Source of the DNA: a candidate division WOR-3 bacterium
GTDB taxonomy: Bacteria > Hydrothermota > Tepidihabitantia > SM23-42 > CAYGYG01
Reading direction: 5' to 3'
Assembly (NCBI GenBank): GCA_965648915.1
Contig: CBFGIV010000002.1
Span: 85,711-149,710, forward strand
Length of the DNA: 64,000 bases
The notes beneath the pieces were generated by a model. That model was not told the DNA's origin. It saw only the letters and a list, made by a program, of their open reading frames with translations, and searched no databases. Made by a program: the position numbers and the translations under genes. Below are positions 7,927 through 55,703 of the stretch, piece by piece. Each line of letters begins with the position of its first letter. The first letter of the stretch is position 1.

Positions 7927-9589
7927 GCCACTGGTTACAATTGGGGCGATGCTGGACCGTAGTGCCGAATATCGGCCTGACCGGATAGCCCTGAGAGCCA
8001 GGCGTGGCGATCGCTATTATGAAATGACTTACCAGGCGTTGAAAGAGAATGCACATCTTCTTGCCCTTGAGTTACGCGGACTCGGTCTCAAGAAGGGGGA
8101 TCGCGTCGGACTCATCGGTGAAAACCGCCCTGAATGGGCGGTTGCCTATTTTGCAATTCAGAAGGCTAATCTGGTCGGGGTACCGCTCGACCCGCAACTG
8201 AAAGAGAATGAAATAAGACACATCCTTAACGAAAGCGGAGCCCGGGCAGTCATTGCCGCGGGCAGTTTTGTCCATATGCTGAGTGAGATTAAAGAAGGTC
8301 TTCCTAATTTAAGGCATATCATCTCGATGGAAAATCTTGAAGCCGTTCTTAGAACCAAAGTCCCGAAGTCCTTTGAGATTAAAGAGGAATCATCCATTGA
8401 TGATCTTGCCCTTTTGATTTATACTTCAGGTACCACCGGTTCATCGAAAGGAGTAATGCTCAGCCATCGAAATATTATCAGTAATGTCGATTCGATCTAC
8501 CGATTCATCGAAGTGAATGAGTATGATAATTTTCTTTCGGTCTTGCCCCTCCATCATACATTTGAGGCAACCTGCGGCTTTCTTGTTCCCATTTATAATA
8601 ATGCGACGATCACCTATGCACCGAGTTTGAAATCGAAAGAGATTATTGAGACCATGCGGGAGACTTCGGTTACCTGTCTGTTAGGGGTCCCGCTCCTTTT
8701 TGAAAAATTTTATGATGGTATTCAGCGTAATATTAAGAAATCGCCCGTCCATAAGAGGCTATTTTTTAAGATTATGTATAGGGTCTCAAGCCGGATTCAA
8801 CCTCTGGCCGGGCTTATCTTTAAGGGACTCAAGGAAAGATTAGGCATGGGTAAGATTCGTTACATAATATCGGGCGGAGCACCCCTCCCGGTGAAAATAT
8901 CTTCGTTCTTCAATGGTCTTGGCATTCCGCTACTCCAGGGGTATGGCCTGACCGAGGCATCACCGGTCCTGACAGTTAATCCCCCGGATCGACCCCGGAA
9001 TGCTTCGGTCGGTATTGCCATCCCGGATGTCAGGATTGCTATCGATCAGCCCAACGAGGATGGTATTGGTGAAGTGATTGCCACCGGGCCCAATATTATG
9101 CTGGGTTATTACCGGAATCAACAGGCAACTAATGAAGTACTGAGAGAGGGCTGGCTCTATACTGGTGATTTAGGTTACCTTGATAAAGATGGTTATCTTT
9201 ACATCGTCGGTCGTAAGAAGAGCGTTATCGTGACCGCCGGCGGTAAGAATGTCTACCCGGAAGAGATCGAAGAGATTCTGTTGAGGAGCCCTTATATAAA
9301 AGAGACAATTGTTCTACCCCGGTTAAATCCGAAAACAAACCAGGAAGAGGTCTACGCTATAATCCATCCTGACTATGAAAGGATCGACGAACTGGCAACC
9401 AACGCGAAAAGAAATTTTACCGAAGCGGATATAGAACAATTGATTCGCTGTGAAATTAATAAACAGTGTGATTCAATTGCTGAATATAAGAGGGTTAGAT
9501 CTTTTAAAATCCGGGAAGAAGAATTTCCCAAGACAACGACCAAGAAGATCAAACGTCATCTATTTGAAAAAGAGATTGTCCAGGTTTAG
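7901..9589 (+). CDS. Long-chain fatty-acid--CoA ligase (AMP-dependent synthetase/ligase)
   Basis: AMP-binding motif YTSGTTGSSKGV; GYGLTE; C-terminal lid; ATG 7901 preferred over TTG 7850 to limit overlap with the upstream gene. Confidence 0.85.
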   Translation: MTSRPKEGKPLVTIGAMLDRSAEYRPDRIALRARRGDRYYEMTYQALKENAHLLALELRGLGLKKGDRVGLIGENRPEWAVAYFAIQKANLVGVPLDPQLKENEIRHILNESGARAVIAAGSFVHMLSEIKEGLPNLRHIISMENLEAVLRTKVPKSFEIKEESSIDDLALLIYTSGTTGSSKGVMLSHRNIISNVDSIYRFIEVNEYDNFLSVLPLHHTFEATCGFLVPIYNNATITYAPSLKSKEIIETMRETSVTCLLGVPLLFEKFYDGIQRNIKKSPVHKRLFFKIMYRVSSRIQPLAGLIFKGLKERLGMGKIRYIISGGAPLPVKISSFFNGLGIPLLQGYGLTEASPVLTVNPPDRPRNASVGIAIPDVRIAIDQPNEDGIGEVIATGPNIMLGYYRNQQATNEVLREGWLYTGDLGYLDKDGYLYIVGRKKSVIVTAGGKNVYPEEIEEILLRSPYIKETIVLPRLNPKTNQEEVYAIIHPDYERIDELATNAKRNFTEADIEQLIRCEINKQCDSIAEYKRVRSFKIREEEFPKTTTKKIKRHLFEKEIVQV

Positions 9590-9599
9590 CGATACATCC

Positions 9600-9627
9600 T
9601 TGACATTTTTATCCCATTAGATATAAT
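9600..9627 (+). promoter_or_regulatory. Near-consensus sigma-70 promoter (TTGACA-N16-TATAAT); TSS coincides with the ATG at 9633 (leaderless)
   Basis: TTGACA 9600-9605, TATAAT 9622-9627. Confidence 0.6.
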
Positions 9628-10670: not shown

Positions 10671-10676
10671 AAATAT

Positions 10677-10748
10677 CGGGGAGTGGCGCAGTGGAAGCGC
10701 ACCTGGTTCGGGACCAGGGGGTCGCTGGTTCAAATCCAGTCTCCCCGA
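10677..10748 (+). tRNA. tRNA-Pro (anticodon CGG)
   Basis: Cloverleaf folded by hand: C1-G72 acceptor stem typical of bacterial tRNA-Pro; anticodon stem CCTGG/CCAGG; loop TTCGGGA; GTTCAAATC T-loop; no encoded CCA. Confidence 0.85.
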
Positions 10749-10766
10749 TTTAAATTATTAAAAACA

Positions 10767-11288
10767 ATGACTGCTAAGAACAAGAAGTTGCGGTTGGTAA
10801 AAAATAGGACCCGACTAAAGGTGGTTGCGGTGATCGGGGCTTCTGAGGCCGGTGAGGACATCTTGATCGAGGCTGAAGCAATTGGTGAAGGTATTGCACG
10901 GGCCGGGGCTTTTTTAATTTGTGGTGGTTTAGGCGGAGTGATGGAGGCTGCCTGTCGGGGCGCAAAGAAAGCAAATGGTTTTACAATTGGTATTCTGCCT
11001 GGAACCGATCGGAGTGATGCCAATCAGTATGTCGATTTAGCAATTGTTACCGGAATGAGTCAGGCCCGGAATATAATAATTGCAAGAAGTTGTGATGCAG
11101 CAATTGCCATTGCCGGCAGATACGGGACACTTTCTGAAATAGCCTACTGCCTCATGTTTGGTGTTCCGGTCATTGGTCTTCATACCTGGAAGATATCGTC
11201 GAGTCTGATGCCTGAACTCAAACCAATAATTTATGCCGACAGTGCCGAGGATGCCTTAGAAAAGTTGACCAGGATATTGAGGGATTAA
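10767..11288 (+). CDS. TIGR00725/LOG-like Rossmann-fold nucleotide-binding protein
   Basis: VAVIGASEAG...ICGGLGGVMEAA...PVIGL pattern of the LOG/TIGR00725 family; ORF-track start lies inside the tRNA, so trimmed to ATG 10767. Confidence 0.55.
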   Translation: MTAKNKKLRLVKNRTRLKVVAVIGASEAGEDILIEAEAIGEGIARAGAFLICGGLGGVMEAACRGAKKANGFTIGILPGTDRSDANQYVDLAIVTGMSQARNIIIARSCDAAIAIAGRYGTLSEIAYCLMFGVPVIGLHTWKISSSLMPELKPIIYADSAEDALEKLTRILRD

Positions 11289-14200: not shown

Positions 14201-15052
14201 TCCTTCAATTTCTCACTTGAGGGGCAGACCTTTTTCTCGGGTGTGAGCAGTCAGGAGAGCATTGGTTTTATTGTTCCGCAGTTTGCGACCCGGCACCAGC
14301 CGGTCCTGCGCTTCAGTATCTATAACAATTTAAGATCCGGCCGGCTCGACTCGGTGCCGCTGCGCGGTCTGGCCGTGCCCTCGGGTGACATCGAGCCTCC
14401 CCGGGTCGAATTCTATGCTCAGGGCCGGAGGCTCAAGGATGGGGACTGGGTGGAGAAGAATCTTTCTCTGACCGGGGTGATTGAGGATGCGAGCGGGATA
14501 AATCTGATCGATCCGGCGCAGAACGAGAGGCAGGGTTTTGGTCTTTATGTGAATGGTAACAAGGCCGGGGTGATTGATCTGCGTAATTATTTCAGTTATG
14601 ATTTAGACAGTTATCAGCGGGGGCGATTTACCGTCGAATTAAACCTGCCGGACCGGACCGATACGATTACGGTCTATGTGAGTGACAACAACTACAATCG
14701 GACCGAGGCGAAGCTCGGTCTCCGGGTTGCCCAGGACGAAGAACTTGTGGTTGAGGATTTTTTAGTCTATCCCAATCCGCTGGACGAGGGTGGTTATTTT
14801 ACCTTTGTCCTTTCGGTCGATGCCCGGGTGAGGCTTGAGATCTACACGGTCAGTGGACGTTTTGTGCGCCGGCTCGATCATCTCCCGATGCGGGCTGGTT
14901 TCAACAAAGTCTGGTGGGATGGTCTGGATCAACGGGGTGACCGGCCGGCCAATGGGGTATATTTAGTGAAGATCGAGGCAATCCGGGAGCGGGGCGGAAA
15001 TCGAAGATCGATCTCAAGGATCGAGAAATTTATCATCCACCACCGGCCGTAA
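11294..15052 (+). CDS. Large secreted C25 (gingipain-like) cysteine peptidase-family protein with T9SS C-terminal sorting domain
   Basis: Candidate catalytic His (AYYGHGNNH) and Cys (YYGTCSPG) blocks with C25-like spacing; signal peptide; C-terminal VYPNPLDEGGYFTFVL...GVYLVKIEA is a T9SS CTD. Confidence 0.6.
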   Translation: MLGLSFFLFTFSFQPLPDGLELDFRIDATPENGFSFPGGIYYHPVGAPNLPGQFFYIGVPQEGGVRVEIVEEESRTYPGEIKPVGKFSFEETSFEKDPEIYSRAEYYPDLFFLEGPFRWRDLRVVRLQVNPIRYNPGKRLVSVTSHLRLRLVFEGRPRVVRRSSTFDNIYPAVILNYEQAKDWRILDNPLKIHPIFDMPLWFKMVVDSDGLYQIDYELLKRFIPDPGQIDPRTIRVYTAKFDTLTGNGSIFNIDTTLFNGLIEIPILVYGEEDGRFDRGDYILFYGFGASHLSITKPETLTYFNNPFDRSNFFWLTFGAKPGKRFSRIDGRIQPGEVCYFLRHPVHLEEEKENPGRSGLNWAWQTMTITGSGSWAFPINHYGSTGEGNIKVKIITFGHKFEIKLYYNDSLFFDTLWLFGNVNLRKKLNYIGDSGILRIDLFSSGSDSFSVFLDNLELNYRSRPILQRPLYSLVTVPGSYQYAIGGVHAPPLVLDITDLRNPRLFYNLQVEGESLYFSHRVDSLALLYITDLKKVRRPILTAGRVGNLRRETAGCDYLILTADEFYEEMKPLLMWRQREYQVRMVRLSEVYNNFGFGKEEPAAIKYFLYYVYRNWQPMPKFVLFVGDGSYDYKNNLKLEKPNRFFPPLEQGMNLQSPDGNYCYDDWFVMFNSTKLPEMIVGRLNVRNKQMARIVVKKILDYEQKVNLGPWAKNIIFLGDDEWSPYGLEWDSIRSYWEHSANCESLLFYIPDSLVDITKIYMNVYPNESGKKPKARLDFIAAMNKGAFCGAYYGHGNNHQLAHEGGFYGEDVNLVKNGPRNFFFYYGTCSPGRFDDTKYESICEEFVCRADGAIGTYGATRVTSPGQNVPLGNLIFDNIFNKNFTMGECCYHAKLMSPADITCCLFGDPGVRLNRPIGGVSISVQPDTLRPLSQGRIRCGEPKYFLRATIRDSLTGLTHYIVRDQQGRFVDSFNFSLEGQTFFSGVSSQESIGFIVPQFATRHQPVLRFSIYNNLRSGRLDSVPLRGLAVPSGDIEPPRVEFYAQGRRLKDGDWVEKNLSLTGVIEDASGINLIDPAQNERQGFGLYVNGNKAGVIDLRNYFSYDLDSYQRGRFTVELNLPDRTDTITVYVSDNNYNRTEAKLGLRVAQDEELVVEDFLVYPNPLDEGGYFTFVLSVDARVRLEIYTVSGRFVRRLDHLPMRAGFNKVWWDGLDQRGDRPANGVYLVKIEAIRERGGNRRSISRIEKFIIHHRP

Positions 15053-15055
15053 AAT

Positions 15056-15090
15056 ACTTTACACTTTTGATCAGGTAAGAAATGTAAAGT
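15056..15090 (+). repeat. 35-nt conserved palindromic intergenic motif, copy 1 (ACTTTACACTTTTGATCAGGTAAGAAATGTAAAGT)
   Basis: Nearly identical to 18976-19010; arms CTTTACA/TGTAAAG; starts 3 nt after the stop codon. Confidence 0.6.
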
Positions 15091-15159
15091 GTGGCTATTC
15101 TTTGAGATACAGTGTTTTCCCTCTTGATTTCTTTTAAAAAATATATAGATTAGTTTAAA

Positions 15160-15837
15160 ATGAAACCATATGTAACCAGCAGAAATCTTGCTCTTAAAAC
15201 GAAGGAGTGGCTTAAGATAATTGCGCCTTATAACAAACACCGGATGAAACTTAACATCCAGAAAGCGGCGCTACTGGTAATCGATATGCAGAATGATTTT
15301 CTCAAACCAAATTCATTACTTTTGACCGAGGGTGGAGTTGCGATCCTGAATAACTTAAAAAAACTAATCAGTAGCTGCCGTAAACAGAAGATTCCGGTCA
15401 TATTTACCGCCCATGTCCATAAAGATCCGAAGATCGATGGCGGTATGACGGCAAAATGGTGGCCGGAGCTGATGAAAAAGCGGGCACTGGTTTATGGCAG
15501 GAAAGGTGTGGAGATTTATGAAGCACTCGCTCCCCGACCGACTGAACCGGTAATTTATAAACATCGTTATAGCGCATTTTATAACACCAATCTGGAAGTG
15601 ATTCTTCGTGGGCTGAGAGTCGAAGATGTCATTATCACAGGTGTGATGACCAATATCTGTTGTGAATCTACAGCCCGGGACGCATTCTTTCGGGATTTCA
15701 GGATTTTTTTTGTTGCCGACGCCACTGGTTCGGTAACTGAGGATCTGCATCTCGGAGCCTTGCGTAATCTTGCCTATGCCTTTGCTTATATAACGACCAC
15801 CGGTGAGGTTTTAAGAGATTTAAGGCAGCGCAGATAA
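15160..15837 (+). CDS. Isochorismatase-family cysteine hydrolase
   Basis: LLVIDMQNDF, VIITGVMTNICCESTARDA with catalytic Cys; likely true start ATG 15244. Confidence 0.75.
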   Translation: MKPYVTSRNLALKTKEWLKIIAPYNKHRMKLNIQKAALLVIDMQNDFLKPNSLLLTEGGVAILNNLKKLISSCRKQKIPVIFTAHVHKDPKIDGGMTAKWWPELMKKRALVYGRKGVEIYEALAPRPTEPVIYKHRYSAFYNTNLEVILRGLRVEDVIITGVMTNICCESTARDAFFRDFRIFFVADATGSVTEDLHLGALRNLAYAFAYITTTGEVLRDLRQRR

Positions 15838-17285
15838 TGGAGTTAAAATTTTCATCCAACCCGAGGCTGCGGGATAATTTCCGGTATGTTATTTTGATTA
15901 TATTTATCTTAAATTACTGTTTATTTGCTCAGCCTTATACTGATAGTCTCCTCTTTTTCTACTCACCTGACTGTCGCCACTGTGAGTTTTTTCTGAAGGA
16001 ATTTTTGCCCAAGATTGAGAGAGATTACCGCATCGCGGTTAAGACCTTCAACATTGAGATTGCGCGGAATATGTACCTCCTTGAAGGACTTGAAGCGAAA
16101 TTGAAGAATATAGGCGATGAATTGCCAGTTATTTTTTACCGGGACCTTGTTGTTTATGGCACCGACAGCATTTTGAAGAAGTTACCGGCAATTATCGATC
16201 ATTATCGGGCCGAGTCCCTTATTTACATCGCCTACTTCACAAAGCCTTCCTGTCGGGAGTGCAGTCGGGTTGATAGGATTATAAAAATTTTAACTCGGGA
16301 AGAGAAAAATATCGTCGTCAAAACCTATAATATTAATATCAAGGATAATAAACTTCTGGCTGAGGCAATCAGTGAGCGGATTGGTGTCCCTGAGAGATTC
16401 CGGCTTCTTGTGCCGGCAATATTTGTTGGTCGAGATTATCTAATAAAAGATAATATCCGATTGACTGAATTGAAAGATATCTTAAGAAAATACCACGCGG
16501 GCACAGAGAATTTTGAATTATTAAATCCCGCAATCAAAGCTCAGAGTGAAGAGGCGATCTGCAACCGGTTTGCCCAAATAGGTTTTTGGGGTGTAATCGG
16601 TGCAGGGTTGCTTGATGGGATAAATCCCTGTGCTTTTGCGACAATTCTCTTCTTTATAAGTTATCTGGTCCTGCTCGGTCGTAAGCAACGCGATATAATT
16701 TTGATGGGTCTTTTTTTCTCCCTTGCGGTCTTTCTGACCTATTTTCTTATCGGACTTGGTTATCTTCAATTCTTAGATTACCTGACTCGGTTTAGACCAA
16801 TCAGTAAGTTCATTTTTGCAGGCTTTGGCATCCTGACAATTATCTTGGGTCTCCTGAATATCTATGATTTCCTCCAGGCGCGCACTGGCAGATTAGACCG
16901 GATGAAATTGCAACTCCCGGATTACATAAAGATTCAAATCCATAAAAGCATTAAAGCCCAGACCAGGATTTTTGGTATTGTCCTTGGTGCATTTGGTGCA
17001 GGGCTGTTTGTTTCGATCTTAGAATTTGCCTGTACCGGTCAGGTCTATATTCCAACCATTACCTTTGTGGTTTCGAACCCTCAACTGAAAATCAGGGCGA
17101 TAACTTTTTTGACACTTTATAACATTATGTTTATCTTCCCGTTAGTAATCATCACCGGGGTTGGATCGATCGTTTCTACTGACCGGGTTGGTAAGTTTTT
17201 AAAGGCCCGGATAGGGACGATCAAGGTTATGACAGCACTCTTTTTTATCACCCTTGGAATTCTGTTGATTATTTTATCATCGTAG
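15837..17285 (+). CDS. Thiol:disulfide oxidoreductase fusion: two thioredoxin-like CxxC modules plus a CcdA/DsbD-type transmembrane domain
   Basis: CRHC and CREC motifs in the N-terminal half; C-terminal multi-TM region with GINPCAFATI and ACTGQ, like the CcdA/DsbD thiol-transfer channel. Confidence 0.6.
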   Translation: MELKFSSNPRLRDNFRYVILIIFILNYCLFAQPYTDSLLFFYSPDCRHCEFFLKEFLPKIERDYRIAVKTFNIEIARNMYLLEGLEAKLKNIGDELPVIFYRDLVVYGTDSILKKLPAIIDHYRAESLIYIAYFTKPSCRECSRVDRIIKILTREEKNIVVKTYNINIKDNKLLAEAISERIGVPERFRLLVPAIFVGRDYLIKDNIRLTELKDILRKYHAGTENFELLNPAIKAQSEEAICNRFAQIGFWGVIGAGLLDGINPCAFATILFFISYLVLLGRKQRDIILMGLFFSLAVFLTYFLIGLGYLQFLDYLTRFRPISKFIFAGFGILTIILGLLNIYDFLQARTGRLDRMKLQLPDYIKIQIHKSIKAQTRIFGIVLGAFGAGLFVSILEFACTGQVYIPTITFVVSNPQLKIRAITFLTLYNIMFIFPLVIITGVGSIVSTDRVGKFLKARIGTIKVMTALFFITLGILLIILSS

Positions 17286-17294
17286 GGGTAAAGG

Positions 17295-18974
17295 ATGAAG
17301 AGAATCTTCTTTTGGGCCTTATTAATTGTTTCAGGTATGTTTGGCGATGATTTCAATCAGCTGGGAAGTGAAATTATTGAATATCTCTGGCGTTTTCATC
17401 CTGTGGATGCAACTTATAAAGGGATACATAAATATGATACCCTTCTTACTGATTTTCGTCCTGAGGTACTACGAGCGAGGTTTAAGGATATAAAAATATT
17501 TGAGCAAAGACTCGATCGGATTGACACATTAAGTCTTTCGGTTGATGAATATATCGATTATGCTCTGCTGCGGATAATGCTCAAGAACGAGATCTTCACT
17601 GGTGAGAGTTTGATGATTTACCGGAAGAACCCTCTTATTTATGTGAATGAAGCGATATATGGTATTTATAATATACTGATCCGATCGAGCCCATCCGTTC
17701 AACTTAAAATGGAAGCGATCAGGGCACGTTTGACGAAAATCCCGGATCTATTTGATCAGGCGCGCAAGAATCTTGTTGAACCACCGCCGATATTATGTAA
17801 GATTGCGATTGAGCAACTCCGTGAGGGTGCCGTCTTTTTTAACGACCTGGCAGCACGATATACTGATTCACTCGGGCCTGAAGCGAATAAGGAATTTATC
17901 ACGGCTAAAGAGAAGGCAGTTGTCGCCATGGTGGCTTTTCGTTACTGGTTGGAAGATATCGAAAAAGGTCCAGCGACATCATATGCCCTGGGTCATTCCA
18001 AATATGCTTATAAATTGAGGGAGATCCACCTGCTCGATATGTCGATTGATAGTATCCTGAGTCTGGGACAGAATATGCTGAATTTAACAAGCAGGGTGAT
18101 TGACAGTTTGAAGAAGGCTTATCAATCAAAAGAGACACCCCTTCTAAAACCACCCGCAGATTTCAAACCCGATGATGTGAAAAGGTATCGCCAGTGGGAA
18201 ATCGAAGAGATGAGAAGATTTGTTGGTTCTCAGGGGGTCGATTATGTTACCGTGCCCGATTATGTGGGTGCGATGTTTGTTGTGGAAACCCCTAAATTCT
18301 TAAGAGGACTGATCCCGGGGATCGCAATGGAACCGCCGGGGCCATTTGACAAGTCAACAACAAGTTATTTTTATGTTAGACCATTACCGGAGAGATTTGA
18401 TTCGTCCGAGGCAGTAAGATATTATAATTATATCAGACAACGGGGATTTAAAGGATCAGTTGTCCACGAAGGTTTTCCCGGCCATCATCTTCAGTTATCA
18501 ATTGCCAATCAACACCCTTCTCCGATTAGGAGGTCTATATCCGATAACTTCTTGATTGAGGGCTGGGCACTTTACTGTGAAGAATTGATGGCGCGCAGCG
18601 GTCTCTATGAGGATACCATAGGTGCCATTATTGGATATCTGGGTGGTGTTCGATTCCGTTCGGCCAGAGTTATCGTTGATGTGATGCTCCAGACCGGTCA
18701 GTATGACTATGAACAGGCAGTAAATTTTATGTGTCAGACCTTTGGCGGTGGTCAGGCCGATTCTGTATTTTTTGCCCGGGAAGTAGCAAGGTATATAACC
18801 GACCCAGGGCAAGCAGCGAGTTATCTAGTTGGGAAGATGCAAATCTTGAGACTTCTTGAAGATTATAAAAAGGTGGCAGGTAGACACTTCCGGCTGAAAG
18901 ATTTTCACGATAAACTGTTGAATGAGGGTTCGATCCCGATAAGTCTTATCCGGAGAAAGATTCTTACCCCTTGA
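17295..18974 (+). CDS. DUF885-family protein (putative secreted metallohydrolase-like)
   Basis: HEGFPGHHLQ motif and overall length typical of DUF885; signal peptide. Confidence 0.65.
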   Translation: MKRIFFWALLIVSGMFGDDFNQLGSEIIEYLWRFHPVDATYKGIHKYDTLLTDFRPEVLRARFKDIKIFEQRLDRIDTLSLSVDEYIDYALLRIMLKNEIFTGESLMIYRKNPLIYVNEAIYGIYNILIRSSPSVQLKMEAIRARLTKIPDLFDQARKNLVEPPPILCKIAIEQLREGAVFFNDLAARYTDSLGPEANKEFITAKEKAVVAMVAFRYWLEDIEKGPATSYALGHSKYAYKLREIHLLDMSIDSILSLGQNMLNLTSRVIDSLKKAYQSKETPLLKPPADFKPDDVKRYRQWEIEEMRRFVGSQGVDYVTVPDYVGAMFVVETPKFLRGLIPGIAMEPPGPFDKSTTSYFYVRPLPERFDSSEAVRYYNYIRQRGFKGSVVHEGFPGHHLQLSIANQHPSPIRRSISDNFLIEGWALYCEELMARSGLYEDTIGAIIGYLGGVRFRSARVIVDVMLQTGQYDYEQAVNFMCQTFGGGQADSVFFAREVARYITDPGQAASYLVGKMQILRLLEDYKKVAGRHFRLKDFHDKLLNEGSIPISLIRRKILTP

Positions 18975-18975
18975 A

Positions 18976-19010
18976 ACTTTACACTCTTGACACGGTAAGA
19001 AATGTAAAGC
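18976..19010 (+). repeat. 35-nt conserved palindromic intergenic motif, copy 2 (ACTTTACACTCTTGACACGGTAAGAAATGTAAAGC)
   Basis: 31 of 35 positions identical to copy 1; begins 1 nt after the DUF885 stop and ends 4 nt before ATG 19015. Confidence 0.6.
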
Positions 19011-19014
19011 ATTT

Positions 19015-22000
19015 ATGAATTTAAATGAAGAGCGGCGATTAATAACGATTCTTTTTGCTGATCTATCGGGGTTCACCACTCTTGCCCAGCATCTTGATCC
19101 TGAAGAGGTCAGTGAGGTAATAAATATCTGCTTCGGTCATTTAAATCCGATAATCACACACCATGGGGGCGTAATTCATAAGTATGAAGGTGACCTGGTT
19201 ATCGCGCTATTTGGGTTACCGGTTACCCATGAAGACGATCCGGAACGTGCGGTCAGGGCGGCCATAGAGATGATGGCTTCTGTACCCGAGATAAATGCAT
19301 CGCTCCTTAATAGGTTGAGTATCCGGAGTAGTGTCGATCTCCATATCGGAATCAGCAGTGGAGTTGTTTTTGTGGGCGAAGTTGGCTCAAGGGAAAAACA
19401 CGAATACACCGTAATGGGTGAAGTGGTAAATCTGGCTTCGCGTCTCAAAGATACAGCAAAAGCTGGCGAGATCCTTATTGCAGAGACAATCTATCGGTTA
19501 ACCCATTATCTTATTGAAACTGTCCCCCTGCCGCCAGTTAAACTTAAGGGCATCGAGGGCGAAGTAAGAATTTTCAAAGTCCTGGGTTTGAAATCCGAGC
19601 CGGAACCGGAACGTGGCATAAGAGGACTATCTTCACCACTGGTTGGTCGGGACCGAGAGTTCGCCCTGCTTAAAACTGCGGTTGAACGTCTGACCCAAGG
19701 AAAGGGTGGTATAATTTTCATCATCGGCGACCCCGGAATCGGGAAATCACGTCTTTTTGAGGAAATAAGGAATTTCATTATTACTGAGGAGATACCAATC
19801 ACCATATTTGAAGGTCGTTGTCTTGCTTATGGTGAAAATCTTGCTTATCATCCGTTTTTGCCGGTTTTAAGAAAAATTACCGGTATTACTGAAAAAGACT
19901 CAGTCAGTGATATTCAGAATAAATTAATCAGATTTACCGCCGAACTCTTTCCGGATGATTATAAAAGTGTCGCGCCCTACATCGGTTATCTCTTTTCTAT
20001 CCGTTATGGTGACGAACTGGATGAAAAGGTTAAGTATTTAGACCCCAAGGGTTTAAGGTATCAGATCTTTTTGAGTATAAAGAGATTACTTTTTGCTCTG
20101 GCTCAGAGGCAACCACTCCTGTTGGTTATTGAAGATTATCACTGGATCGATACTGAATCTTTAGAACTGCTTGAATTCATATATGAGCAATCAATTTCGG
20201 CGCCGATGCTGATGTTCGCTTTATCGCGCTTTGTCAAAGAAAAGATCCCAGGGATAGTAAAAGAGCGGCTCCGCAAAAAACTCAGCGAAAATTTTACCGA
20301 AATAATTTTAAGACCACTCGATCGAGATGCCGGGGCCCAACTTCTTTACAATCTATTAAATTTTCCGGACATCAGTCCGGACCTGAAAAACCAGATATTG
20401 ATGAAGGCCGACGGTAATCCATACTTTGTCGAAGAAATAATTCGTTCTTTGATTGATACCAGTAAACTTAAATTCACATCCGGACGATGGAAGGCGATCG
20501 GAGACTTTACGACGATTACCATTCCCGACACGATTCAACTGTTACTTACATCACGAATTGACCAGCTGGATGATGATGTGAGAAACGTACTGCAACAGGC
20601 TTCAATAATTGGGAGAATTTTTGATGTCGAATTGTTAGAACTGGTAAATGGTGCAAATCATCTTATGCTCAGCCTTTATCTCGCAACCCTTGAGGAATTT
20701 GGATTTATAATGCGGGTACCGGGTGAGGGTGATCTGCGTTACCAGTTTCGTCACCCTCTCTTGTATGAGGTGGTCTACAATAGCATTTTGAAAAAAAACC
20801 GACGATCGTTACATCGGAAGGTAGGTGAATTGATCGAAAATATTCATAAAGAGCGACTGGATGATTGGGCGGAGGCGCTTGCCCATCAATATGGTCAGAG
20901 TGATAATTATGAAAGGGCAATGCACTGGCTGATGCGGGCAGGGTATAAAGCCAAGGGACGATATGCCAATGATGAGGCAATCAGTTTCTTCGAGAAACTG
21001 ATTGCAATAACAACAACCGTAACCAAGGTTGAAAAAGAAGTCCGGAGGCGGTATCGGGTTCAGGCCTCAGAAGCGCTAGGGGAGTTATATTTCTTAACCG
21101 GTAGGTATGATCAGGCAATCAAAAATTTTGAAATGATGCGCGACAATGCTCAGAGCGTTGGCGATCGAGCACGGGCCCAGCGACAGTTGGCTACGATTTA
21201 TCAGAATCAAGGACAGTATGATTTTGCTTTACAGTTACTCGATGAGATTGAAAAGTCGTTCACCGGTACGTCGCTATCTGAAATATTGGAACGAGTAGAA
21301 ATTATGATTCTAAGAGGCTGGATATACTGGGTGCGGGGGATGCTGGAACCGGCGCGGGCCGAGTGTGAAGAAGCTATCAATCTTTTAGGTAAACTTAACC
21401 CCGAGGAGCAACTGGTGAAGGCGCTTAAAGCAACAGCAATGAGTCGACTCGGATTAATTGCTCAAACAAAAGGAGAATATGAGAAGGCAATTGCATATAA
21501 TGAAGAGGATTTAAGACTCTCTCGAGAAATTGCCAATAAAAAAGGTATCAGCCGTGCCTGCTGTAATCTCGGTAGTATCTACAAAGAATTCGGTCAGTAT
21601 GATCGGGCGATTGAGTATTATGATGAAGACTTAAGAATATCAGAAGAGATCGGTGATAAACAGGGGATGGGGATAACGGCAAATAATTTAGGCACGATCT
21701 ATTTGATTAAAAAGGATTATGACCGGGCACAAGAACTTTTTCAAAAATACCTGATTATCTCTCAAGAGACTGGATATCTCCAGGGGATGGGCACGGCCAA
21801 GCTCAATCTCGGGTCGTTGGCCCTGCGGGTCTCCGAAATTGAAGATGCTGAGAAAAATTTGCTTGAAGCCGAAGCGATTCTTAAAGAAATCGGTTATCAT
21901 AGTGTCTTGATTACGGTCTACATTTTACTGGCCGAACTCTATCTGGTGCACCGAAAAGAGATGAAGAAGGCGTGGTCTTATCTCAATCGGGCCAGACAAT

Positions 22001-22288: not shown

Positions 22289-22317
22289 TTGACAAAAATA
22301 AGAAGATCGATTATACT
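22289..22317 (+). promoter_or_regulatory. Sigma-70-type promoter (TTGACA-N17-TATACT) for rpsA; leader contains hairpin CCCCGTCAAAGGGG and an AGGAGG SD
   Basis: Read directly from the sequence. Confidence 0.55.
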
Positions 22318-40869: not shown

Positions 40870-40926
40870 TAATAAGTATTGTTATATTAAGCATTATATC
40901 CTGCTCAATTATAGAATTTGCAATTT

Positions 40927-40944
40927 TTTTTGCAAAATGCAAAA
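40927..40944. promoter_or_regulatory. Putative enhancer (UAS) for the sigma-54 activator: TTTTGCAAAATGCAAAA
   Basis: TGCA-N3-TGCA dyad ~65 nt upstream of the -24 element; same element repeated at 41571-41590. Confidence 0.45.
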
Positions 40945-40952
40945 AATTATCT

Positions 40953-41492
40953 TCAGTTATGGAGAAGAAATATGATCATTCCTTCCCTTATTGACCTGCC
41001 GTCCTTACGACTGCCAATTATGCCATATTCGGTTGGCAATGTATTCGGTGGTGCAGGGGGTGGAAAGATACCGTAGCGAATCATACCGGCTCTTGGTGCC
41101 AGCCAGTCATTGGGTCCACCGATGCTACTATTACTATTCTCACCGGAATTACCATAATTAATAACCACGATATCAAGAGGGGTTAGGGGTAATGAGGTCC
41201 AGGGATTATTAGGATAAGTGCCGGGCCTTGTCTGTTTCTCTTCATCACCATTCGGAAAGTAATAGGCAAAACCATAAGGTGAGGTTTCTGGCCCAAGCGG
41301 ATAGATACCGCCGAAATCTGCGGCAAACATTTCGACCGAGAGATGGACTTCATGACAGTTGTTTTTGTGTGAGGCCTGGCGGGTCCTTTCCTGAATTGTT
41401 AAGTAGTTAGGAATAGCAATGGCGGCAATAACACCAATGATTACTAAAACTACCATAAGTTCGATCAGGGTAAATCCTTTTTTATCCTTCAT
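40953..41492 (-). CDS. Type IV pilin / prepilin-type N-terminal cleavage-methylation domain protein (paralog 2)
   Basis: MKDKKGFTLIELMVVLVIIGVIAAIAIPNY; shares the YGFAYYFPNGDE block with paralog 1. Confidence 0.8.
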   Translation of the reverse strand: MKDKKGFTLIELMVVLVIIGVIAAIAIPNYLTIQERTRQASHKNNCHEVHLSVEMFAADFGGIYPLGPETSPYGFAYYFPNGDEEKQTRPGTYPNNPWTSLPLTPLDIVVINYGNSGENSNSSIGGPNDWLAPRAGMIRYGIFPPPAPPNTLPTEYGIIGSRKDGRSIREGMIIFLLHN

Positions 41493-41570: not shown

Positions 41571-41590
41571 TTTTTGCATTTTGCAAAAAT
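41571..41590. promoter_or_regulatory. Second copy of the TTTTTGCA-N3-TGCAAAAATTAT putative UAS
   Basis: TTTTTGCATTTTGCAAAAAT abuts the stop codon of the regulator gene. Confidence 0.45.
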
Positions 41591-42876
41591 TATCCCTTCC
41601 TTATCTTTTTAAGTTTTCGATAGAGGGTTGACGGATGCATCCCGAGCCGGTGGGCGGCCCGGACCACATTCCCTTTTTCTATCTTTAAGGTCTTAGTAAT
41701 CTCTTTGTATTCAATCTCAGCCAGAGAAGATGTGGTAATTTTGGGCTCAAAGGATGGGAAGAACTGGGGGGTGATAATGGACTTATCACAGAGGATTGCC
41801 ATTCTCTCCACAACATTCTCCAGCTCCCGGATATTACCCGGCCAGTGATACTCTTTTAATGCCTTGATTGTCTCCTTAGCAAATGTCTTCTCTTTTATGC
41901 CCATCTTCTGGCAGATATTTTTGAGGAAGTGTTCGGCTAATATAGGGATATCTTCAACCCTTTCTCTCAGTGGGGGCAGGAGAATCGGGAAGACATTGAT
42001 TCGAAAGTAGAGGTCTTCGCGGAATTTTCCCCGGGCGACTTCTTCCTCAAGATTCTTATTGGTTGCGGCAATGAGGCGGACATCAACTTTGATCGGAGTG
42101 GTGGAGCCAAGAGGGACAATCTCTTTTTCCTGAAGCAGTCTTAAGATCTTCATCTGGATTGATGCCGGTGCATCGCCGATCTCGTCGAGGAAGAAACTCC
42201 CCTGATCGGCGGCAAGGAGGAGTCCTTCTTTATCCTGATGCGCACCGGTGAAGGCGCCTTTCTTATAGCCAAAGAGTTCACTCTCGAGAAGGGTCTCCGG
42301 GACTGCAGCACAAGAGAGGGTGATGAATGGTTTGGAACTGCGATTTGATCTTTGATGAATCTCCTTTGCAAATAGTTCTTTACCGGTCCCGCTCTCACCC
42401 AGGATCAAGACCGTGGCATCGGTGTTAGCAACCCGATCGACCAGTTCTAATGCCTTCCTGATGGTTTCGCTTTTACCAATGATTGCTGAGGATTCGACCG
42501 GTTTAATCTTTTTCGGTCTCAATACCGCATCGAGCCTTTGATAGAGTTCATTCAGGGTGAAGGGTTTTAAGAGATAGTCGTTTGCCCCGCCCCTTAATGC
42601 CTCGATCGCCGATTCCATCGAACCATAGGCGGTTATAAATATGACTGGTAAATCGCTATCAATCTTCTTGGCCTCTCGTAAAAATTTAAATCCATCCATA
42701 TCAGGCATCTTGATATCGGAGATGACACAGTCGATCTTCTCTTTTTTTACTAAGTTGAGTGCGGTATGAGGATCGGTCGTTGGAACGGGGAGGTAATTTT
42801 TCTGTTTTAAGGCGACGGAAATCCAGTCGACCATACTCTGCTCATCGTCAAGGACCAGGACACGAAATTTCTCCAT
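41590..42876 (-). CDS. Sigma-54-dependent two-component response regulator (NtrC/PilR family: REC + AAA+ + Fis-type HTH)
   Basis: Receiver Asp (VISDIKMPDMDG); Walker A GESGTGKE; GAFTGA sigma-54 contact motif; C-terminal HTH AAHRLGMHPSTLYRKLKK. Confidence 0.9.
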   Translation of the reverse strand: MEKFRVLVLDDEQSMVDWISVALKQKNYLPVPTTDPHTALNLVKKEKIDCVISDIKMPDMDGFKFLREAKKIDSDLPVIFITAYGSMESAIEALRGGANDYLLKPFTLNELYQRLDAVLRPKKIKPVESSAIIGKSETIRKALELVDRVANTDATVLILGESGTGKELFAKEIHQRSNRSSKPFITLSCAAVPETLLESELFGYKKGAFTGAHQDKEGLLLAADQGSFFLDEIGDAPASIQMKILRLLQEKEIVPLGSTTPIKVDVRLIAATNKNLEEEVARGKFREDLYFRINVFPILLPPLRERVEDIPILAEHFLKNICQKMGIKEKTFAKETIKALKEYHWPGNIRELENVVERMAILCDKSIITPQFFPSFEPKITTSSLAEIEYKEITKTLKIEKGNVVRAAHRLGMHPSTLYRKLKKIRKG

Positions 42877-42905
42877 AAATAATTATAATATTATTTTAGG
42901 AAAAG

Positions 42906-50990: not shown

Positions 50991-52394
50991 TCAAAAAGGA
51001 GGGGCTTCCTGGGGGAAGATTTTTCCCGGGTTAAGGATATTTTTGGGGTCGAAGATTTTTTTAATCCTTCTCATAAGTTCAATCTGGACTGGATCAAGGG
51101 CCATAGGTAGATAGGATTTTTTAACCAGACCGATACCGTGTTCAGCAGTTATCGTTCCACCAAGTTCAATGGTTATCTGATAGACACGCTCGATTAATTT
51201 TGTTAAATGCGCACGGTCAAAGCCCTCCTGGGCAAGGAAATCACAGTGGATGTTTCCATCACCCATATGCCCAAAGGCAAAGAGTTTTACTCGATAGATA
51301 TTCTCGAGAGCCTTGAGTTGATTGATGAGTTCCGATACCCGGTTCCTCGGAACAACCAGATCTTCCCGGGCAACCATCATCCCGAGGGTCTTAAGTTCAC
51401 CAGTTTTTCTCCTTGTCTCCCAGATTCGATCCTGAGTTGGACGATCTTCACCAACCAGAACCTCAAGGGCTTTACTTTCATAGGCTGATTCACCTATCTT
51501 CTCGTATATTTTTCTCAGTTGCTCGATATCATCACCGTCGATCTGAACAATCAGTTGAACCCCGGCCTGGGAAAAGGGCAATGGATGGCCCAGGACCTTT
51601 TCGACACCCCGCACCACCTCACCATCCATAAGTTCAACTGCACTGGGGACAATCCCCTTTTCGAATATTTTGGGCACAAAACTTGCTGCTTCCTCAATCT
51701 TGACAAACGGGATGAGAAGATCGATCCGGGCCCTGGGCAGGGGCAGGAGTTTCAATGTGGCTTCGGTAATTACTGCCAGCGTCCCTTCAGAACCGATAAT
51801 CAGATCGAGCAGGCTATAACCAGCAACATTCTTCAACAGTTTACCGCTTAATTTTGTAATTGAGCCGTCAGGTAGAACGATCTCTAAACCCATTACATAG
51901 TTGCGGGTGACTCCATATTTGACTGCCTTAGGGCCACCCGCACACTCGGCAATATTACCACCGATGCAACAGGAGTCGATGCTGACCGGGTCCGGGGGAA
52001 AGAAGAGATTGTATCTTTCAAGAACTCTCCCCAGTTCACCGGTAATTATTCCTGGTTCGACCACCACCATTGAATTTTCGATATCGATCTCTTTAATCTT
52101 ATTCATCCTTTCAAAGGATATAACAATGCCCCCAAAGATGGGAATTGCCCCACCCGATAGACCGGTTCCCCCGGAACGGGGTGTCACCGGGATCATCTCA
52201 TCATTGGCTAAATTCATTATTTCAGAAACCTGTTTGGTATTTTCAACTTTTACTACAACTTCAGGCATCGCACAAAATATTGGAGTCTCATCATGGGAGA
52301 AGGGTTCTAATTTGTCCTGGGTTGTTAAGCAGTTTTGCGCGCCGACAATCTTTTGTAAGATCTCGACGATCTGTGGTGTAACTTTATTATACAT
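50991..52394 (-). CDS. FAD-binding oxidoreductase (GlcD / D-lactate dehydrogenase family, FAD_binding_4 + FAD-oxidase_C)
   Basis: PRSGGTGLSGGAIP FAD-binding motif; C-terminal HGIGL-like HMGDGNIH. Confidence 0.85.
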   Translation of the reverse strand: MYNKVTPQIVEILQKIVGAQNCLTTQDKLEPFSHDETPIFCAMPEVVVKVENTKQVSEIMNLANDEMIPVTPRSGGTGLSGGAIPIFGGIVISFERMNKIKEIDIENSMVVVEPGIITGELGRVLERYNLFFPPDPVSIDSCCIGGNIAECAGGPKAVKYGVTRNYVMGLEIVLPDGSITKLSGKLLKNVAGYSLLDLIIGSEGTLAVITEATLKLLPLPRARIDLLIPFVKIEEAASFVPKIFEKGIVPSAVELMDGEVVRGVEKVLGHPLPFSQAGVQLIVQIDGDDIEQLRKIYEKIGESAYESKALEVLVGEDRPTQDRIWETRRKTGELKTLGMMVAREDLVVPRNRVSELINQLKALENIYRVKLFAFGHMGDGNIHCDFLAQEGFDRAHLTKLIERVYQITIELGGTITAEHGIGLVKKSYLPMALDPVQIELMRRIKKIFDPKNILNPGKIFPQEAPPF

Positions 52395-52466
52395 TGATAA
52401 ATTCTATCCAGATTCTCTCAAAATTCAAGTAAAAATGAGGTCGAGCATTGTGTAAAGATAACCTTG

Positions 52467-52513: not shown

Positions 52514-54088
52514 TTGTTTATATCTATCTTGTTTCTCATCGGTATTGAAGTGAGTTCGAAAATTGACTCGGTCGTAGTCTATAGTAACCGGGTTCTTGTA
52601 TCGAGAATTGCCTATGTAAGTCTGGAAAAGAGTGCTGAGCTTGTCTTTACCAATTTACCCGGGACACTTGAGGATCAATCGGTCCGGATAAAAGCGGAAA
52701 ATCTGACTATCGGTGAAATTGAAATCAGGCGCGGTTATACAAAAGAACCCCATCCCCGGGTCAAAGACTTCCAGGCTAAAATCAAAGATCTGGAGAGTGA
52801 GGATCGTGGTCTAACTGACGAATATGCGGTGTTGAAAGAGTCCGAGAAGTTTCTCGGCTCGATTGCCACTGGTTCTGGTCAGACAATCATTAAAGAGATA
52901 AACACCGCTAAGATTTCACCTCAGTCCTGGCGTCAGGGTTTAAATTTTATTGTTGGTGAATGGGTTAAGGTAAAGACCAGGATGGCCGAGATTGAGCGAA
53001 GACAGATAGATCTGAAGGAGCGGCTTGAAGCTTTAAAAAGAGAATTGAATGACATCCGGGCAGATGTGGAACAACGCAAGACAATTATTTTTGATGTCTC
53101 GGTTAAAACTCCGGGTAATTACAAGATCGAACTCAACTATATTCTACCCGGTGCCCAATGGCGGACATATTATGAAATAAGAGGGCGGCCTTCGGAAAAA
53201 AAGATTGAGTTATTTTACTACGGCAAGATTGGGCAGAGGACAGGTGAAGACTGGGAAGATGTCAGGGTTGTTCTTTCTACGGGCGCGCCGGTAACTGGAG
53301 GGACAGCACCGATACCAGCACCCTGGTATATAGATTTGTATACACCTTACCGTGGTGGCCAGCTTGAAGAAAAAGCCGCTGCAAAAGCAGGTATACCACA
53401 ATTGTTACCACTCACACCGTCTGAGGTAAGCGAGGCACCGCCACCGGCTCCACCAGTCGAAGCCGGTATTGCCATCTGGTATCCTTTGCCGGGCAAATAC
53501 ACGATCAAGAGCGGTGATCAGGAACATAAAATGCTCATTGCCCAAACGTCTTTTGATGCCGATTTTGAATACTTTGCGATGCCGAGAATAGCCCAGTTGG
53601 CTTATCTCACGGGCAGAGCAAAGAACACGAGTGGTTATCTCTTTATTGCAGGTGAGGCGAGTACTTATGTTGGTGATGATTATACGGGCAAGATTTACCT
53701 ACCGAATATAGCACCGGATGAGTCGACTAAAGTTTCCGTGGGAATGGATGATCGGGTTAAAGTAACCCGGGAAACAAAAAAGATGAAGATTAAAAAGGGC
53801 GGGTTATTTGGGGGTAAGACCCGATACGAATTTACTTATGAGAACATCATTGAGAATTTTCACACCCGAGATATAACCTGTCAGATCGTCGATCAGACAC
53901 CAATTCCGAACAATCCCGATATTAATGTGGGTGATATTAAGATCGAACCCCGGCCAACCGAAGAGGATAAAGACCGCAGCCTTTACTACTGGCAGGTGCC
54001 GATCCAGGCGAAGGGGAGATACAGAATAACTGTCTCTTTTACGGTTGAGGCACCCGGTGATCGAGAGATCCGGGGATTGTTGCCATAG
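52514..54088 (+). CDS. DUF4140/DUF4139-family (MuiA-like, TIGR02231-like) protein, paralog 1
   Basis: N-terminal SVVVYSNRVLVSRIA block; central coiled-coil; C-terminal beta-rich region; signal-like N-terminus. Confidence 0.55.
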   Translation: MFISILFLIGIEVSSKIDSVVVYSNRVLVSRIAYVSLEKSAELVFTNLPGTLEDQSVRIKAENLTIGEIEIRRGYTKEPHPRVKDFQAKIKDLESEDRGLTDEYAVLKESEKFLGSIATGSGQTIIKEINTAKISPQSWRQGLNFIVGEWVKVKTRMAEIERRQIDLKERLEALKRELNDIRADVEQRKTIIFDVSVKTPGNYKIELNYILPGAQWRTYYEIRGRPSEKKIELFYYGKIGQRTGEDWEDVRVVLSTGAPVTGGTAPIPAPWYIDLYTPYRGGQLEEKAAAKAGIPQLLPLTPSEVSEAPPPAPPVEAGIAIWYPLPGKYTIKSGDQEHKMLIAQTSFDADFEYFAMPRIAQLAYLTGRAKNTSGYLFIAGEASTYVGDDYTGKIYLPNIAPDESTKVSVGMDDRVKVTRETKKMKIKKGGLFGGKTRYEFTYENIIENFHTRDITCQIVDQTPIPNNPDINVGDIKIEPRPTEEDKDRSLYYWQVPIQAKGRYRITVSFTVEAPGDREIRGLLP

Positions 54089-54131
54089 TTGAGAACTTGA
54101 TCGACAAAAATTATTGAATAAAGGAGATGAG

Positions 54132-55703
54132 ATGGTAGTGGATAAATTTGAAGTAACCGGCATCGAAGTAAATTCGAAAGTGGATTCGGTTGTTGTCTAT
54201 TCAGACCGGGTCCTGGTCACCAGGATTGCTGAGATTTCCATAGAGAAGGGAACCAATATTGTCTTTACTGACCTACCCGGAGCAATTGATGACCAATCGG
54301 TCAGAGTAAAAGCTAAGGATCTGACAATTGGCGAGATTCAGATAAAGACCGGCTATGTACTGAAACCGATCCCGAGGGTGAAAGAACTCCAGGATAAGAT
54401 TAAAACCTTGGAGATTGAGGATCGTAGTCTTAATGACGAACTTGCTGTTCTATCAGATAAAGAAAAATTCCTGAATTCCCTGATTACCGGTTCAGCCAAT
54501 ATTATCTTAAAAGAGATAAATACAGCAAAAGTTGCGCCTGAGACCTGGCAACAGGGAATCAGATTTGTGGCTGATGAACTTATGAGTTCAAAAAAAAGGA
54601 AGGTAGAGATTGAACTGGAAAGGCAGAACTTGAAAGAAAAAATCGATGCCCTGCGCCAGGAATTTAGTGATGTTCGGTCAATAGCGGAAAACCGGAAGGT
54701 GATTTTCTTCGAAGTCCAGCCCAGGAAACCTGGAAAATATTCAATCGAGCTCAGTTATATTATATATGGGGCAAACTGGTGGACCTATTATGATCTACGC
54801 GCCAATCCGGTTGATAAAAAAGTTGAGATCGCTTACTTTGGCAAATTAACTCAGAATACTGGCGAAGACTGGATTGATACCAAGATAACCCTATCCACCG
54901 GCCATCCTGCCACTGGCGGAGCACCACCTTCTCCCGAACCCTGGTACATAAATCTTTACCGACCTCCACCCCAGGAAATAGAAACAGCCTATCGGGGAAA
55001 AAGAGAGATGCCCTCGGCTTCAAAGGCGGCGGAAGATAAACTGGCACCCCCTGTGCTTGAGCCGGCACCACCGGTTGAGACCGGTCTGGCCATCTGGTAT
55101 CCTTTGCCCGGCAAATATACGATCAAGAGTGGTGATCAGGAGAGGAAGATTCTTATCCATCAATCAACCCTTGATGGCGAATATGAATATCTTATCATAC
55201 CGAGGTTCACCCTGCAGGCGTATTTGATGGCAAAGGTTAAGAATACGACCGGTTACCTCTATCTGGCTGGAGAAGCAGGTACTTATGTCGGTGATGATTT
55301 TACCGGCAAAGTATATTTCCCGAAAGTCGCTCCCGATGATACAGTGGATATAACTTTTGGTCTCGATGACCGCGTAAAGGTAAAAAGAGAGACTAGGAAG
55401 ATGAAGATCACCAAGAGCGGTATTTTAGGATCAAAAAACAGATACGAATTTGTCTACGAAAATATTGTTGAAAATTTTCATAATAGCGAAATAAGATGTA
55501 AAATTGTTGATCAGATCCCGATTGCCGGTGATCCCGACATTAAGGTGAGCGATGTGAAATTAAATCCCAAACCATCTGAGGAAGATAAAGATCGAGCGCT
55601 ATATAACTGGCAGATAACACTCCCGGCTAAAGATAAATTCACGATGACCCTGGCCTTTACTGTTGAATGGCCGGCGGAAAGAGAGCTGACCGGATTGATA
55701 TAA
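54132..55703 (+). CDS. DUF4140/DUF4139-family protein, paralog 2 (~50% identical to paralog 1)
   Basis: Shares many blocks with the upstream gene, e.g. GIAIWYPLPGKYTIKSGDQE / GLAIWYPLPGKYTIKSGDQE; AAGGAG SD before ATG 54132. Confidence 0.55.
   Translation: MVVDKFEVTGIEVNSKVDSVVVYSDRVLVTRIAEISIEKGTNIVFTDLPGAIDDQSVRVKAKDLTIGEIQIKTGYVLKPIPRVKELQDKIKTLEIEDRSLNDELAVLSDKEKFLNSLITGSANIILKEINTAKVAPETWQQGIRFVADELMSSKKRKVEIELERQNLKEKIDALRQEFSDVRSIAENRKVIFFEVQPRKPGKYSIELSYIIYGANWWTYYDLRANPVDKKVEIAYFGKLTQNTGEDWIDTKITLSTGHPATGGAPPSPEPWYINLYRPPPQEIETAYRGKREMPSASKAAEDKLAPPVLEPAPPVETGLAIWYPLPGKYTIKSGDQERKILIHQSTLDGEYEYLIIPRFTLQAYLMAKVKNTTGYLYLAGEAGTYVGDDFTGKVYFPKVAPDDTVDITFGLDDRVKVKRETRKMKITKSGILGSKNRYEFVYENIVENFHNSEIRCKIVDQIPIAGDPDIKVSDVKLNPKPSEEDKDRALYNWQITLPAKDKFTMTLAFTVEWPAERELTGLI

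Follow-up and report, generated by a model that had tools for sequence, protein, structure and literature searches.

In Enterobacteria and Pseudomonas, REP and BIME palindromes (such as the intercistronic REPs between malE and malF) are transcribed together with the upstream gene, and it is their functional model that we adopt here. A genome with REPs has tens to hundreds of them; their 5′ side bears a conserved GTAG-type tetranucleotide, their stem is G/C-rich, and they are linked to RAYT transposases. The DNA analysed here is a stretch of 64,000 nucleotides from a candidate division WOR-3 bacterium (the window), in which a 35-nt palindrome is present in two copies. The palindrome shares with the REP type its length of ~35 nt, its imperfect symmetry, its extragenic location and its position just past stop codons and between co-directional cistrons, and each copy is an imperfect extragenic palindrome within the 20–40 nt by which REPs are recognized. 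In contrast to REPs, two copies are known, 3.9 kb apart in the 64 kb, and the stem is A/T-rich; furthermore, there is no GTAG beside either copy and no Y1_Tnp/RAYT gene among the ~48 open reading frames (ORFs) of the window. The motif is most like a REP-type mRNA hairpin, while membership of the REP family is not demonstrable.

The window is ordinary chromosome. Most named homologues of its proteins come from WOR-3, and its DUF885 protein is 100% identical to a partial protein of GCA_039802405.1 (candidate division WOR-3). In a Pfam scan of the ~48 ORFs, neither phage genes nor genes for a transposase, an integrase or a RAYT protein were found. Every gene from 328 to 32282 lies on the + strand, and both copies of the palindrome fall in the intergenic share of the window, which amounts to 9.7%. 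The two copies bracket a three-gene block (15160–18974) that comprises the isochorismatase gene, the gene for a 482-aa protein and the DUF885 gene (Table 1), with GC3 values of 0.42–0.46, typical of the surrounding region. Elsewhere in the window, a tRNA-Pro(CGG) gene (10676–10749) overlaps the called GTG start (10683) of the SLOG/LDcluster4 ORF 10683–11288; the true start of the SLOG/LDcluster4 gene must lie downstream of this codon. A tandem of paralogous DUF4140/DUF4139 genes (52514–55703) has a 278-nt stretch in common, with 72% identity.

Table 1. Positions in the window of the two palindrome copies and of the features around them.
Feature	Position	Strand	Details
Palindrome copy 1, ACTTTACACTTTTGATCAGGTAAGAAATGTAAAGT	15056–15090	+	arms 15057–15063 and 15083–15089, core 15064–15082
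Palindrome copy 2, ACTTTACACTCTTGACACGGTAAGAAATGTAAAGC	18976–19010	+	arms 18977–18983 and 19003–19009
C25 peptidase, propeptide and FlgD_ig C-terminal domain, 1252 aa	11294–15052	+	upstream of copy 1
Isochorismatase family gene	15160–15837	+	first gene of the bracketed block
482-aa protein, weak glutaredoxin-like match	15837–17285	+	second gene of the bracketed block
DUF885 gene	17295–18974	+	third gene of the bracketed block
Class III adenylate/guanylate cyclase, AAA_16 and TPR domains, 1083 aa	19015–22266	+	downstream of copy 2
Putative sigma-70 promoter, TTGATT-N16-TAGATT-N8-ATG(15160)	15124–15151	+	read from the sequence; downstream of copy 1

In both copies, the perfect inverted arms CTTTACA/TGTAAAG enclose a 19-nt core, as the initial annotation had described. 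The copies lie on the same strand, 3920 nt apart, and are identical at 30 of 35 positions, which corrects an earlier count of 31; the five mismatches are at motif positions 11, 16, 17, 18, and 35. The core hexamer TTGA(T/C)(C/A) that had been noted is present, reading TTGATC in copy 1 and TTGACA in copy 2. Homology between the two sites ends sharply at the 35-nt boundary. Copy 1 begins 3 nt past the TAA (15050–15052) of the C25 peptidase gene and copy 2 begins 1 nt past the TGA (18972–18974) of the DUF885 gene, so the reported offset of 1–3 nt from these two stops holds. As for the distances to the downstream starts, the 4 nt given for copy 2 (cyclase ATG at 19015) is right, and copy 1 lies 69 nt, not 70, from the ATG at 15160.

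The conserved right half of the motif also contains a start–stop mini-ORF, ATG TAA (15082–15087 and 19002–19007), with AGGT/CGGT 5′ of it at an SD-like distance. In copy 2, the stop of the mini-ORF is located 7 nt 5′ of the cyclase ATG, which lacks an SD. Judging from this arrangement, a putative role of the mini-ORF in termination–reinitiation is conceivable.

The two-copy 35-nt palindrome is a real feature. Its arm pattern had 0 occurrences in shuffles of the window, and when all such pairs in the window were compared, copy 1 and copy 2 formed the best non-coding direct pair of 35-mers. The sole direct 35-mer pair with a higher score lies within the paralogous DUF4139 genes. First-order Markov simulations of the window (n = 10) gave best pairs with 25–28 matches over 35 positions, all below the real value of 30/35. 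Finally, Logan contig L212 (run SRR27730040) is 100% identical to the window over 160 nt that include the 3′ end of the C25 gene, copy 1, and the start of the isochorismatase gene; therefore, the copy 1 junction is not an assembly artefact.

The RNAs of both copies are predicted to adopt a common structure, with an outer stem of 7–8 bp, a one-base/two-base internal loop, an inner stem of 5 bp and a hexaloop, in which 25 of 26 cells are paired across the two copies. The predicted fold of copy 1 has an energy of −13.5 kcal/mol on the + strand (z −3.2) and −8.8 kcal/mol on the − strand, and that of copy 2 has −8.2 kcal/mol on the + strand (z −1.9) and −11.3 kcal/mol on the − strand; the + strand folds of both copies are below the shuffle means. 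For copy 2, the − strand fold is no worse than the + strand fold, which weakens the case for an RNA hairpin. The inner stem contains two G·U pairs, possible on the + strand only, and a structure-aware covariance model (CM) of the two copies scores the + strand at 58 bits compared to 19–24 bits for the − strand. None of the five differences between the copies disrupts the predicted pairing: three are in the hexaloop, one converts a U·G pair to C–G, and one is at the terminal pair. By our estimate, this structure-sparing pattern has a p of ~0.07 or worse, as the changes at positions 16–18 may be one mutational event, and the comparison of the two sequences (n = 2) showed no compensatory covariation. 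Overall, the predicted fold weakly favours a hairpin transcribed from the + strand.

A sense-strand stem-loop directly past a stop codon is also what intrinsic (Rho-independent) terminators have in common with this motif. As terminator candidates the copies were rejected: two of the eight stem pairs are G–C, there is no U-tract (the tails are GUGUGGCUAUUC and CAUUUAUGAAUU), and none was called in the scan. Two unrelated terminators, moreover, would not share 30/35 bases. The host does have canonical G/C-rich terminators with T-runs, found in the window after 1629 and after 40118, and beside these an A/U-rich stem that lacks a U-tract makes termination unlikely.

Our leading reading, which we hold tentatively, is that the repeat is a transcribed 3′ or intercistronic hairpin of the REP type, restricted to this lineage and locally duplicated. 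We favour it because each copy directly adjoins a stop codon within a long co-directional run of genes, because copy 1 is upstream of, not within, the putative promoter of the next gene, and because the common fold fits both copies, with the differences sparing its pairing and the + strand preferred by the CM. The absence of the motif from relatives (see below) suits a young lineage-specific element more than a conserved operator. The initial annotation had offered an operator, a 3′-UTR or processing element and a small genome-wide repeat as options. It had also anchored the element to the upstream 3′ end, and this is weakly borne out: copy 1 is 3 nt past the stop in a gap of 107 nt, a placement with a chance of ~5% by our arithmetic, and a good putative promoter for the next gene is 3′ of the copy.

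We infer transcription, formation of the hairpin in vivo and every functional consequence of it, as follows. With transcription of the + strand, copy 1 would form the ~35-nt end of the C25 peptidase mRNA, and copy 2 would be transcribed as the spacer between the DUF885 and cyclase cistrons. The transcribed repeat would then fold into the two-part stem-loop, which, by analogy with REPs in E. coli operons, may block 3′ exonucleases or cause pausing or partial termination, so that the upstream cistron would be stabilized; this stabilizing effect is putative. In copy 2, the hairpin may in addition mask the ribosome-binding region of the cyclase gene and keep cyclase output below that of the genes upstream. 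A local duplication or recombination event, not spread through the genome, would have produced the second copy.

The promoters around the block bear on how each copy would be transcribed. The putative promoter of the isochorismatase gene sits 3′ of copy 1, which places this copy between the C25 stop and the promoter of the next gene. For the cyclase gene, neither the scan nor inspection of the sequence revealed a Shine–Dalgarno or a recognizable promoter of its own; the cyclase is therefore probably co-transcribed with DUF885, making copy 2 an intercistronic spacer. Sigma-70 promoters of the window include a perfect TTGACA-16-TATAAT at 9600 and TTGACA-17-TATACT at 22289. Promoters of a leaderless type, with a −10 only 5–8 nt before the ATG and no SD, were seen at 15124–15160, 52392–52430 (− strand) and 42874–42890 (− strand); examples are TTGATT-16-TAGATT-8-ATG, TTGAAT-16-TAGAAT-6-ATG and TATAAT-5-ATG. 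A strong SD is present in only ~40% of the window genes. The promoter spacing suggests leaderless mRNAs for several genes of the window, the isochorismatase gene among them.

The initial annotation had called the core hexamer −35-like. A promoter role for it is unsupported: a sigma-70 promoter was rejected, as neither copy has a −10 element at a usable spacing (16–18 nt) from TTGATC/TTGACA and the scan called no promoter at either site. Extended −10, sigma-54, sigma-28, sigma-32 and ECF promoters were also considered by eye and by scan, and none fits both copies. A further promoter geometry would use the arms themselves, as an over-long-spacer palindromic promoter of the MerR type, with TTTACA as the −35 and TGTAAA or TAAAGY as the −10, which in copy 2 would put the transcription start on the A of the cyclase ATG and give a leaderless mRNA. 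Copy 2 has this arrangement exactly (18978–18983, a 19-nt spacer and 19003–19008, then 6 nt to A19015 of the cyclase ATG), and leaderless-type promoters with a −10 at 5–8 nt from the ATG exist elsewhere in the window. However, TGTAAA is without the two bases critical for a −10 (A at −11 and T at −7), TAAAGY would need a 21-nt spacer, outside the known range, and in copy 1 there is no start codon at the corresponding distance. With no promoter called by the consensus scan at either site and no MerR-family gene nearby, we consider such a promoter very unlikely.

A second pair of palindromes, TTTTTGCA-N3/4-TGCAAAAA, was found on the − strand at 40925–40946 and 41571–41589. These copies lie directly past the stops of a pilin-like gene (40953–41492) and a sigma-54 activator gene (41590–42876), and each is upstream of a pilin-like (N_methyl) gene. 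From its sequence context, the pair looks like a candidate site for an enhancer-binding protein.

Dyad symmetry is also a property of the operators of dimeric regulators (CRP/FNR, LacI/CcpA cre, NiaR, NadR, and MerR-type), and the TGTAAA half-site resembles the consensus half-sites of cre and CRP. Unlike the sites of those families, the half-sites here are everted, with a gap of 19 nt, and are at no conserved distance from a promoter. The repeat could nevertheless be a DNA operator, at which a dimeric or tetrameric regulator would control the isochorismatase operon and the cyclase through the CTTTACA/TGTAAAG half-sites. This reading can draw on the perfect inversion of the arms and the full conservation of the right core in both copies, and on the + strand gene that follows each of them. 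Copy 1 has its centre ~87 nt 5′ of 15160, the putative leaderless start, where an activator could plausibly bind, and copy 2 overlaps the start region of the cyclase gene, a plausible position for a repressor. The TTTTTGCA-N3/4-TGCAAAAA pair likewise abuts stops, so operators in such places would be normal in a compact genome. On the other hand, the everted half-sites, with centres 26 bp (~2.5 helical turns) apart, are on opposite faces of the helix, the two copies differ greatly in their distance to the downstream start (69 nt versus 4 nt), and there is no adjacent regulator gene. Nor is there a similar site in the 1.4 Mb of loci from other genomes, which include several WOR-3 relatives. The operator reading appears rather improbable to us.

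Known regulators were examined in the same context. Since the gene after copy 1 belongs to the isochorismatase/nicotinamidase family, NiaR and NadR operators were among the candidates. The known motifs of these NAD regulators are TGT-N4/5-ACA for NiaR and TGTTTA-N6-TAAACA for NadR (PMC2330245), and they were rejected, as the spacing of our motif does not match. A conserved transcription-factor operator was rejected as well: the motif does not recur in the 1.43 Mb of loci, and with synteny lost, orthologous sites are absent. Two other classes were dismissed, namely a CRISPR repeat, which would call for tandem copies with spacers of 25–70 nt, the copies here being 3920 nt apart with genes between them, and a SECIS element, copy 1 following a TAA and not a TGA. 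Rfam 15 has no family at either copy, even with E up to 10, and a sequence-based literature search returned nothing relevant to the motif.

To what extent the motif occurs elsewhere was addressed with several searches. Hamming, repeat-finder, and covariance-model searches found no third copy within the 64 kb. Both known copies fall in one 3.9-kb interval, the other 60 kb of the window having none, and to this extent a dispersed REP family looks less likely. In the 1.43 Mb of fetched loci, WOR-3 relatives included, there was no occurrence at ≤11/35 mismatches and no CM match; the CM gave no new match in the window, the relatives or contig L211. The pattern CTTTACA-N9-13-GTAAGAAATGTAAAG had 0 matches in GTDB with one genome per species, a set from which the source genome is absent. 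In JGI metagenomes, the same pattern gave two matches, L001 and L002, and did not return the window's own copies. The arms-only pattern had at least 120 matches in large collections and is uninformative.

Neither JGI match was accepted as a true copy. L001 (1620–1654) lies inside a viral polB-like reading frame, and the same polB-like coding stretch (...LYNIFGVRNVKVYES...) is present in the related viral contigs L213 (3794–3826) and L093. In these three viral contigs, a capsid-like gene adjoins the polB-like gene; coding coincidence of this kind inflates pattern matches. The nearest named homologues of the gene on L002 are from Omnitrophota, not WOR-3. L002 (JACKQG010180829.1) carries at 85–119 a perfect palindrome with 14-bp arms, ACTTTACATTTCTT-N7-AAGAAATGTAAAGT, 7 nt 5′ of an NTP_transf_5 gene, and at ~1347–1362, just past the stop of this gene, an inverted second copy of the 16-mer AAATGTAAAGTTATTT; inverted 16-mers therefore lie on both sides of the NTP_transf_5 gene. 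With 22 specified bases, rich in A/T, and a collection as large as JGI, we estimate that chance alone would give 1–3 matches, and from their contexts both matches look like chance or convergence.

Conservation in orthologous intergenic regions, which had been proposed as a check, was looked for in relatives; synteny was lost, no corresponding intergenic regions existed, and the motif did not appear. The DUF885 homologues (L003–L009) are 54–62% identical and have other gene neighbourhoods with unrelated flanks and no motif, and the best homologue of the cyclase has an identity of at most 51%. In the nearest GTDB relative, represented by an S1-anchored locus (L131; CAYGYG010000001.1), S1 is 83% identical and the GC content is 56% compared to 44%. 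Positions 1–21605 of this locus retain the order S1, MiaB-like, MtaB-like, DHDPS, Lon, DUF4412, and S13, with DHDPS and Lon separated by an additional gene of 566 aa. Upstream of S1, synteny is lost at once, and the cyclase, DUF885, isochorismatase, and C25 genes are all absent. Analogous repeats in the loci of relatives are coding paralogues only. One WOR-3-related locus (L009) has identical 55-nt copies at 9101–9155 and 9215–9269, 114 nt apart in an intergenic region between an RNase H gene and a signal peptidase gene. As the motif is missing from the loci of relatives, the element is species- or genus-restricted.

The presence of exactly two co-oriented copies around one block argues for local duplication or recombination over a dispersed family, and it keeps a neutral insertion in consideration. 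The initial annotation had set against its element a local duplication flanking one insertion event, with no further copies. Further copies were indeed not found, whereas a duplication by a single insertion is not demonstrated: two direct copies around one 3.9-kb block fit such an event, and no relative with an 'empty' arrangement was found. The repeat would then be a neutral footprint, left when a segment comprising the three genes of the block plus one motif copy entered by recombination at a copy that already stood between the C25 and cyclase genes, so that direct repeats remained at both junctions, and would have no present function. The bracketing of one three-gene block by two co-oriented copies agrees with this, as do the lack of any other copy wherever we searched and the restriction of the homology to 35 nt. 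Moreover, in the nearest GTDB relative the stretch upstream of S1 is non-syntenic and the stretch downstream is conserved, a one-sided loss of synteny that makes the region rearrangement-prone. However, neither the block nor the window has an integrase, a transposase or another mobility gene, the GC3 of the block matches that of its neighbours, and the nearest homologues of DUF885 are from WOR-3, with no sign of foreign origin; this unremarkable composition together with the missing mobility gene weakens the insertion reading. Furthermore, a target-site duplication of 35 nt would be long, the five differences stay clear of the stems, which hints at constraint, and the motif still stands directly past a stop in two separate contexts. 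We regard a neutral footprint as somewhat unlikely.

A more specific recombination signal was also weighed, in which the copies would be miniature attC-like sites bounding a gene cassette. Like attC sites, the motif is located between a stop and the next start, its arms ACTTTAC/GTAAAGT match RYYYAAC/GTTRRRY (R″/R′ boxes) at six of seven positions each, and its two-stem fold has an asymmetric internal loop and unpaired bases. Against this, the invariant AAC/GTT is replaced by TAC/GTA, and the 35 nt are well under the ~55-nt minimum of known attC sites. There is no integron integrase or tyrosine recombinase in the 64 kb, and the 'cassette' would consist of three genes plus a promoter of its own. 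We give this interpretation hardly any credence. A small chance is left for something new in kind: the copies could be founding members of an undescribed WOR-3 recombination or mobility signal (attC-like or recognized as a hairpin) that moves multi-gene units between stops and starts, or they could form a long-spacer promoter at which a DNA-twisting activator fires a leaderless cyclase mRNA. The remainder of our confidence goes to some reading beyond those listed.

In summary, the repeat appears to be an ordinary intergenic hairpin, specific to this lineage, and any function of it is putative. WOR-3 is, to our knowledge, a phylum without cultured or genetically studied members. If the copies were recombination sites that move blocks of genes, they would be of greater importance; if a dispersed family were present in the whole genome, WOR-3 would have its first described REP-like repeat, with use in strain typing and in work on genome plasticity. 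If instead the hairpin reading is true, the repeat would be a small case of operon-internal expression tuning in WOR-3 and little more. As the evidence stands, it is a minor feature at the species level.
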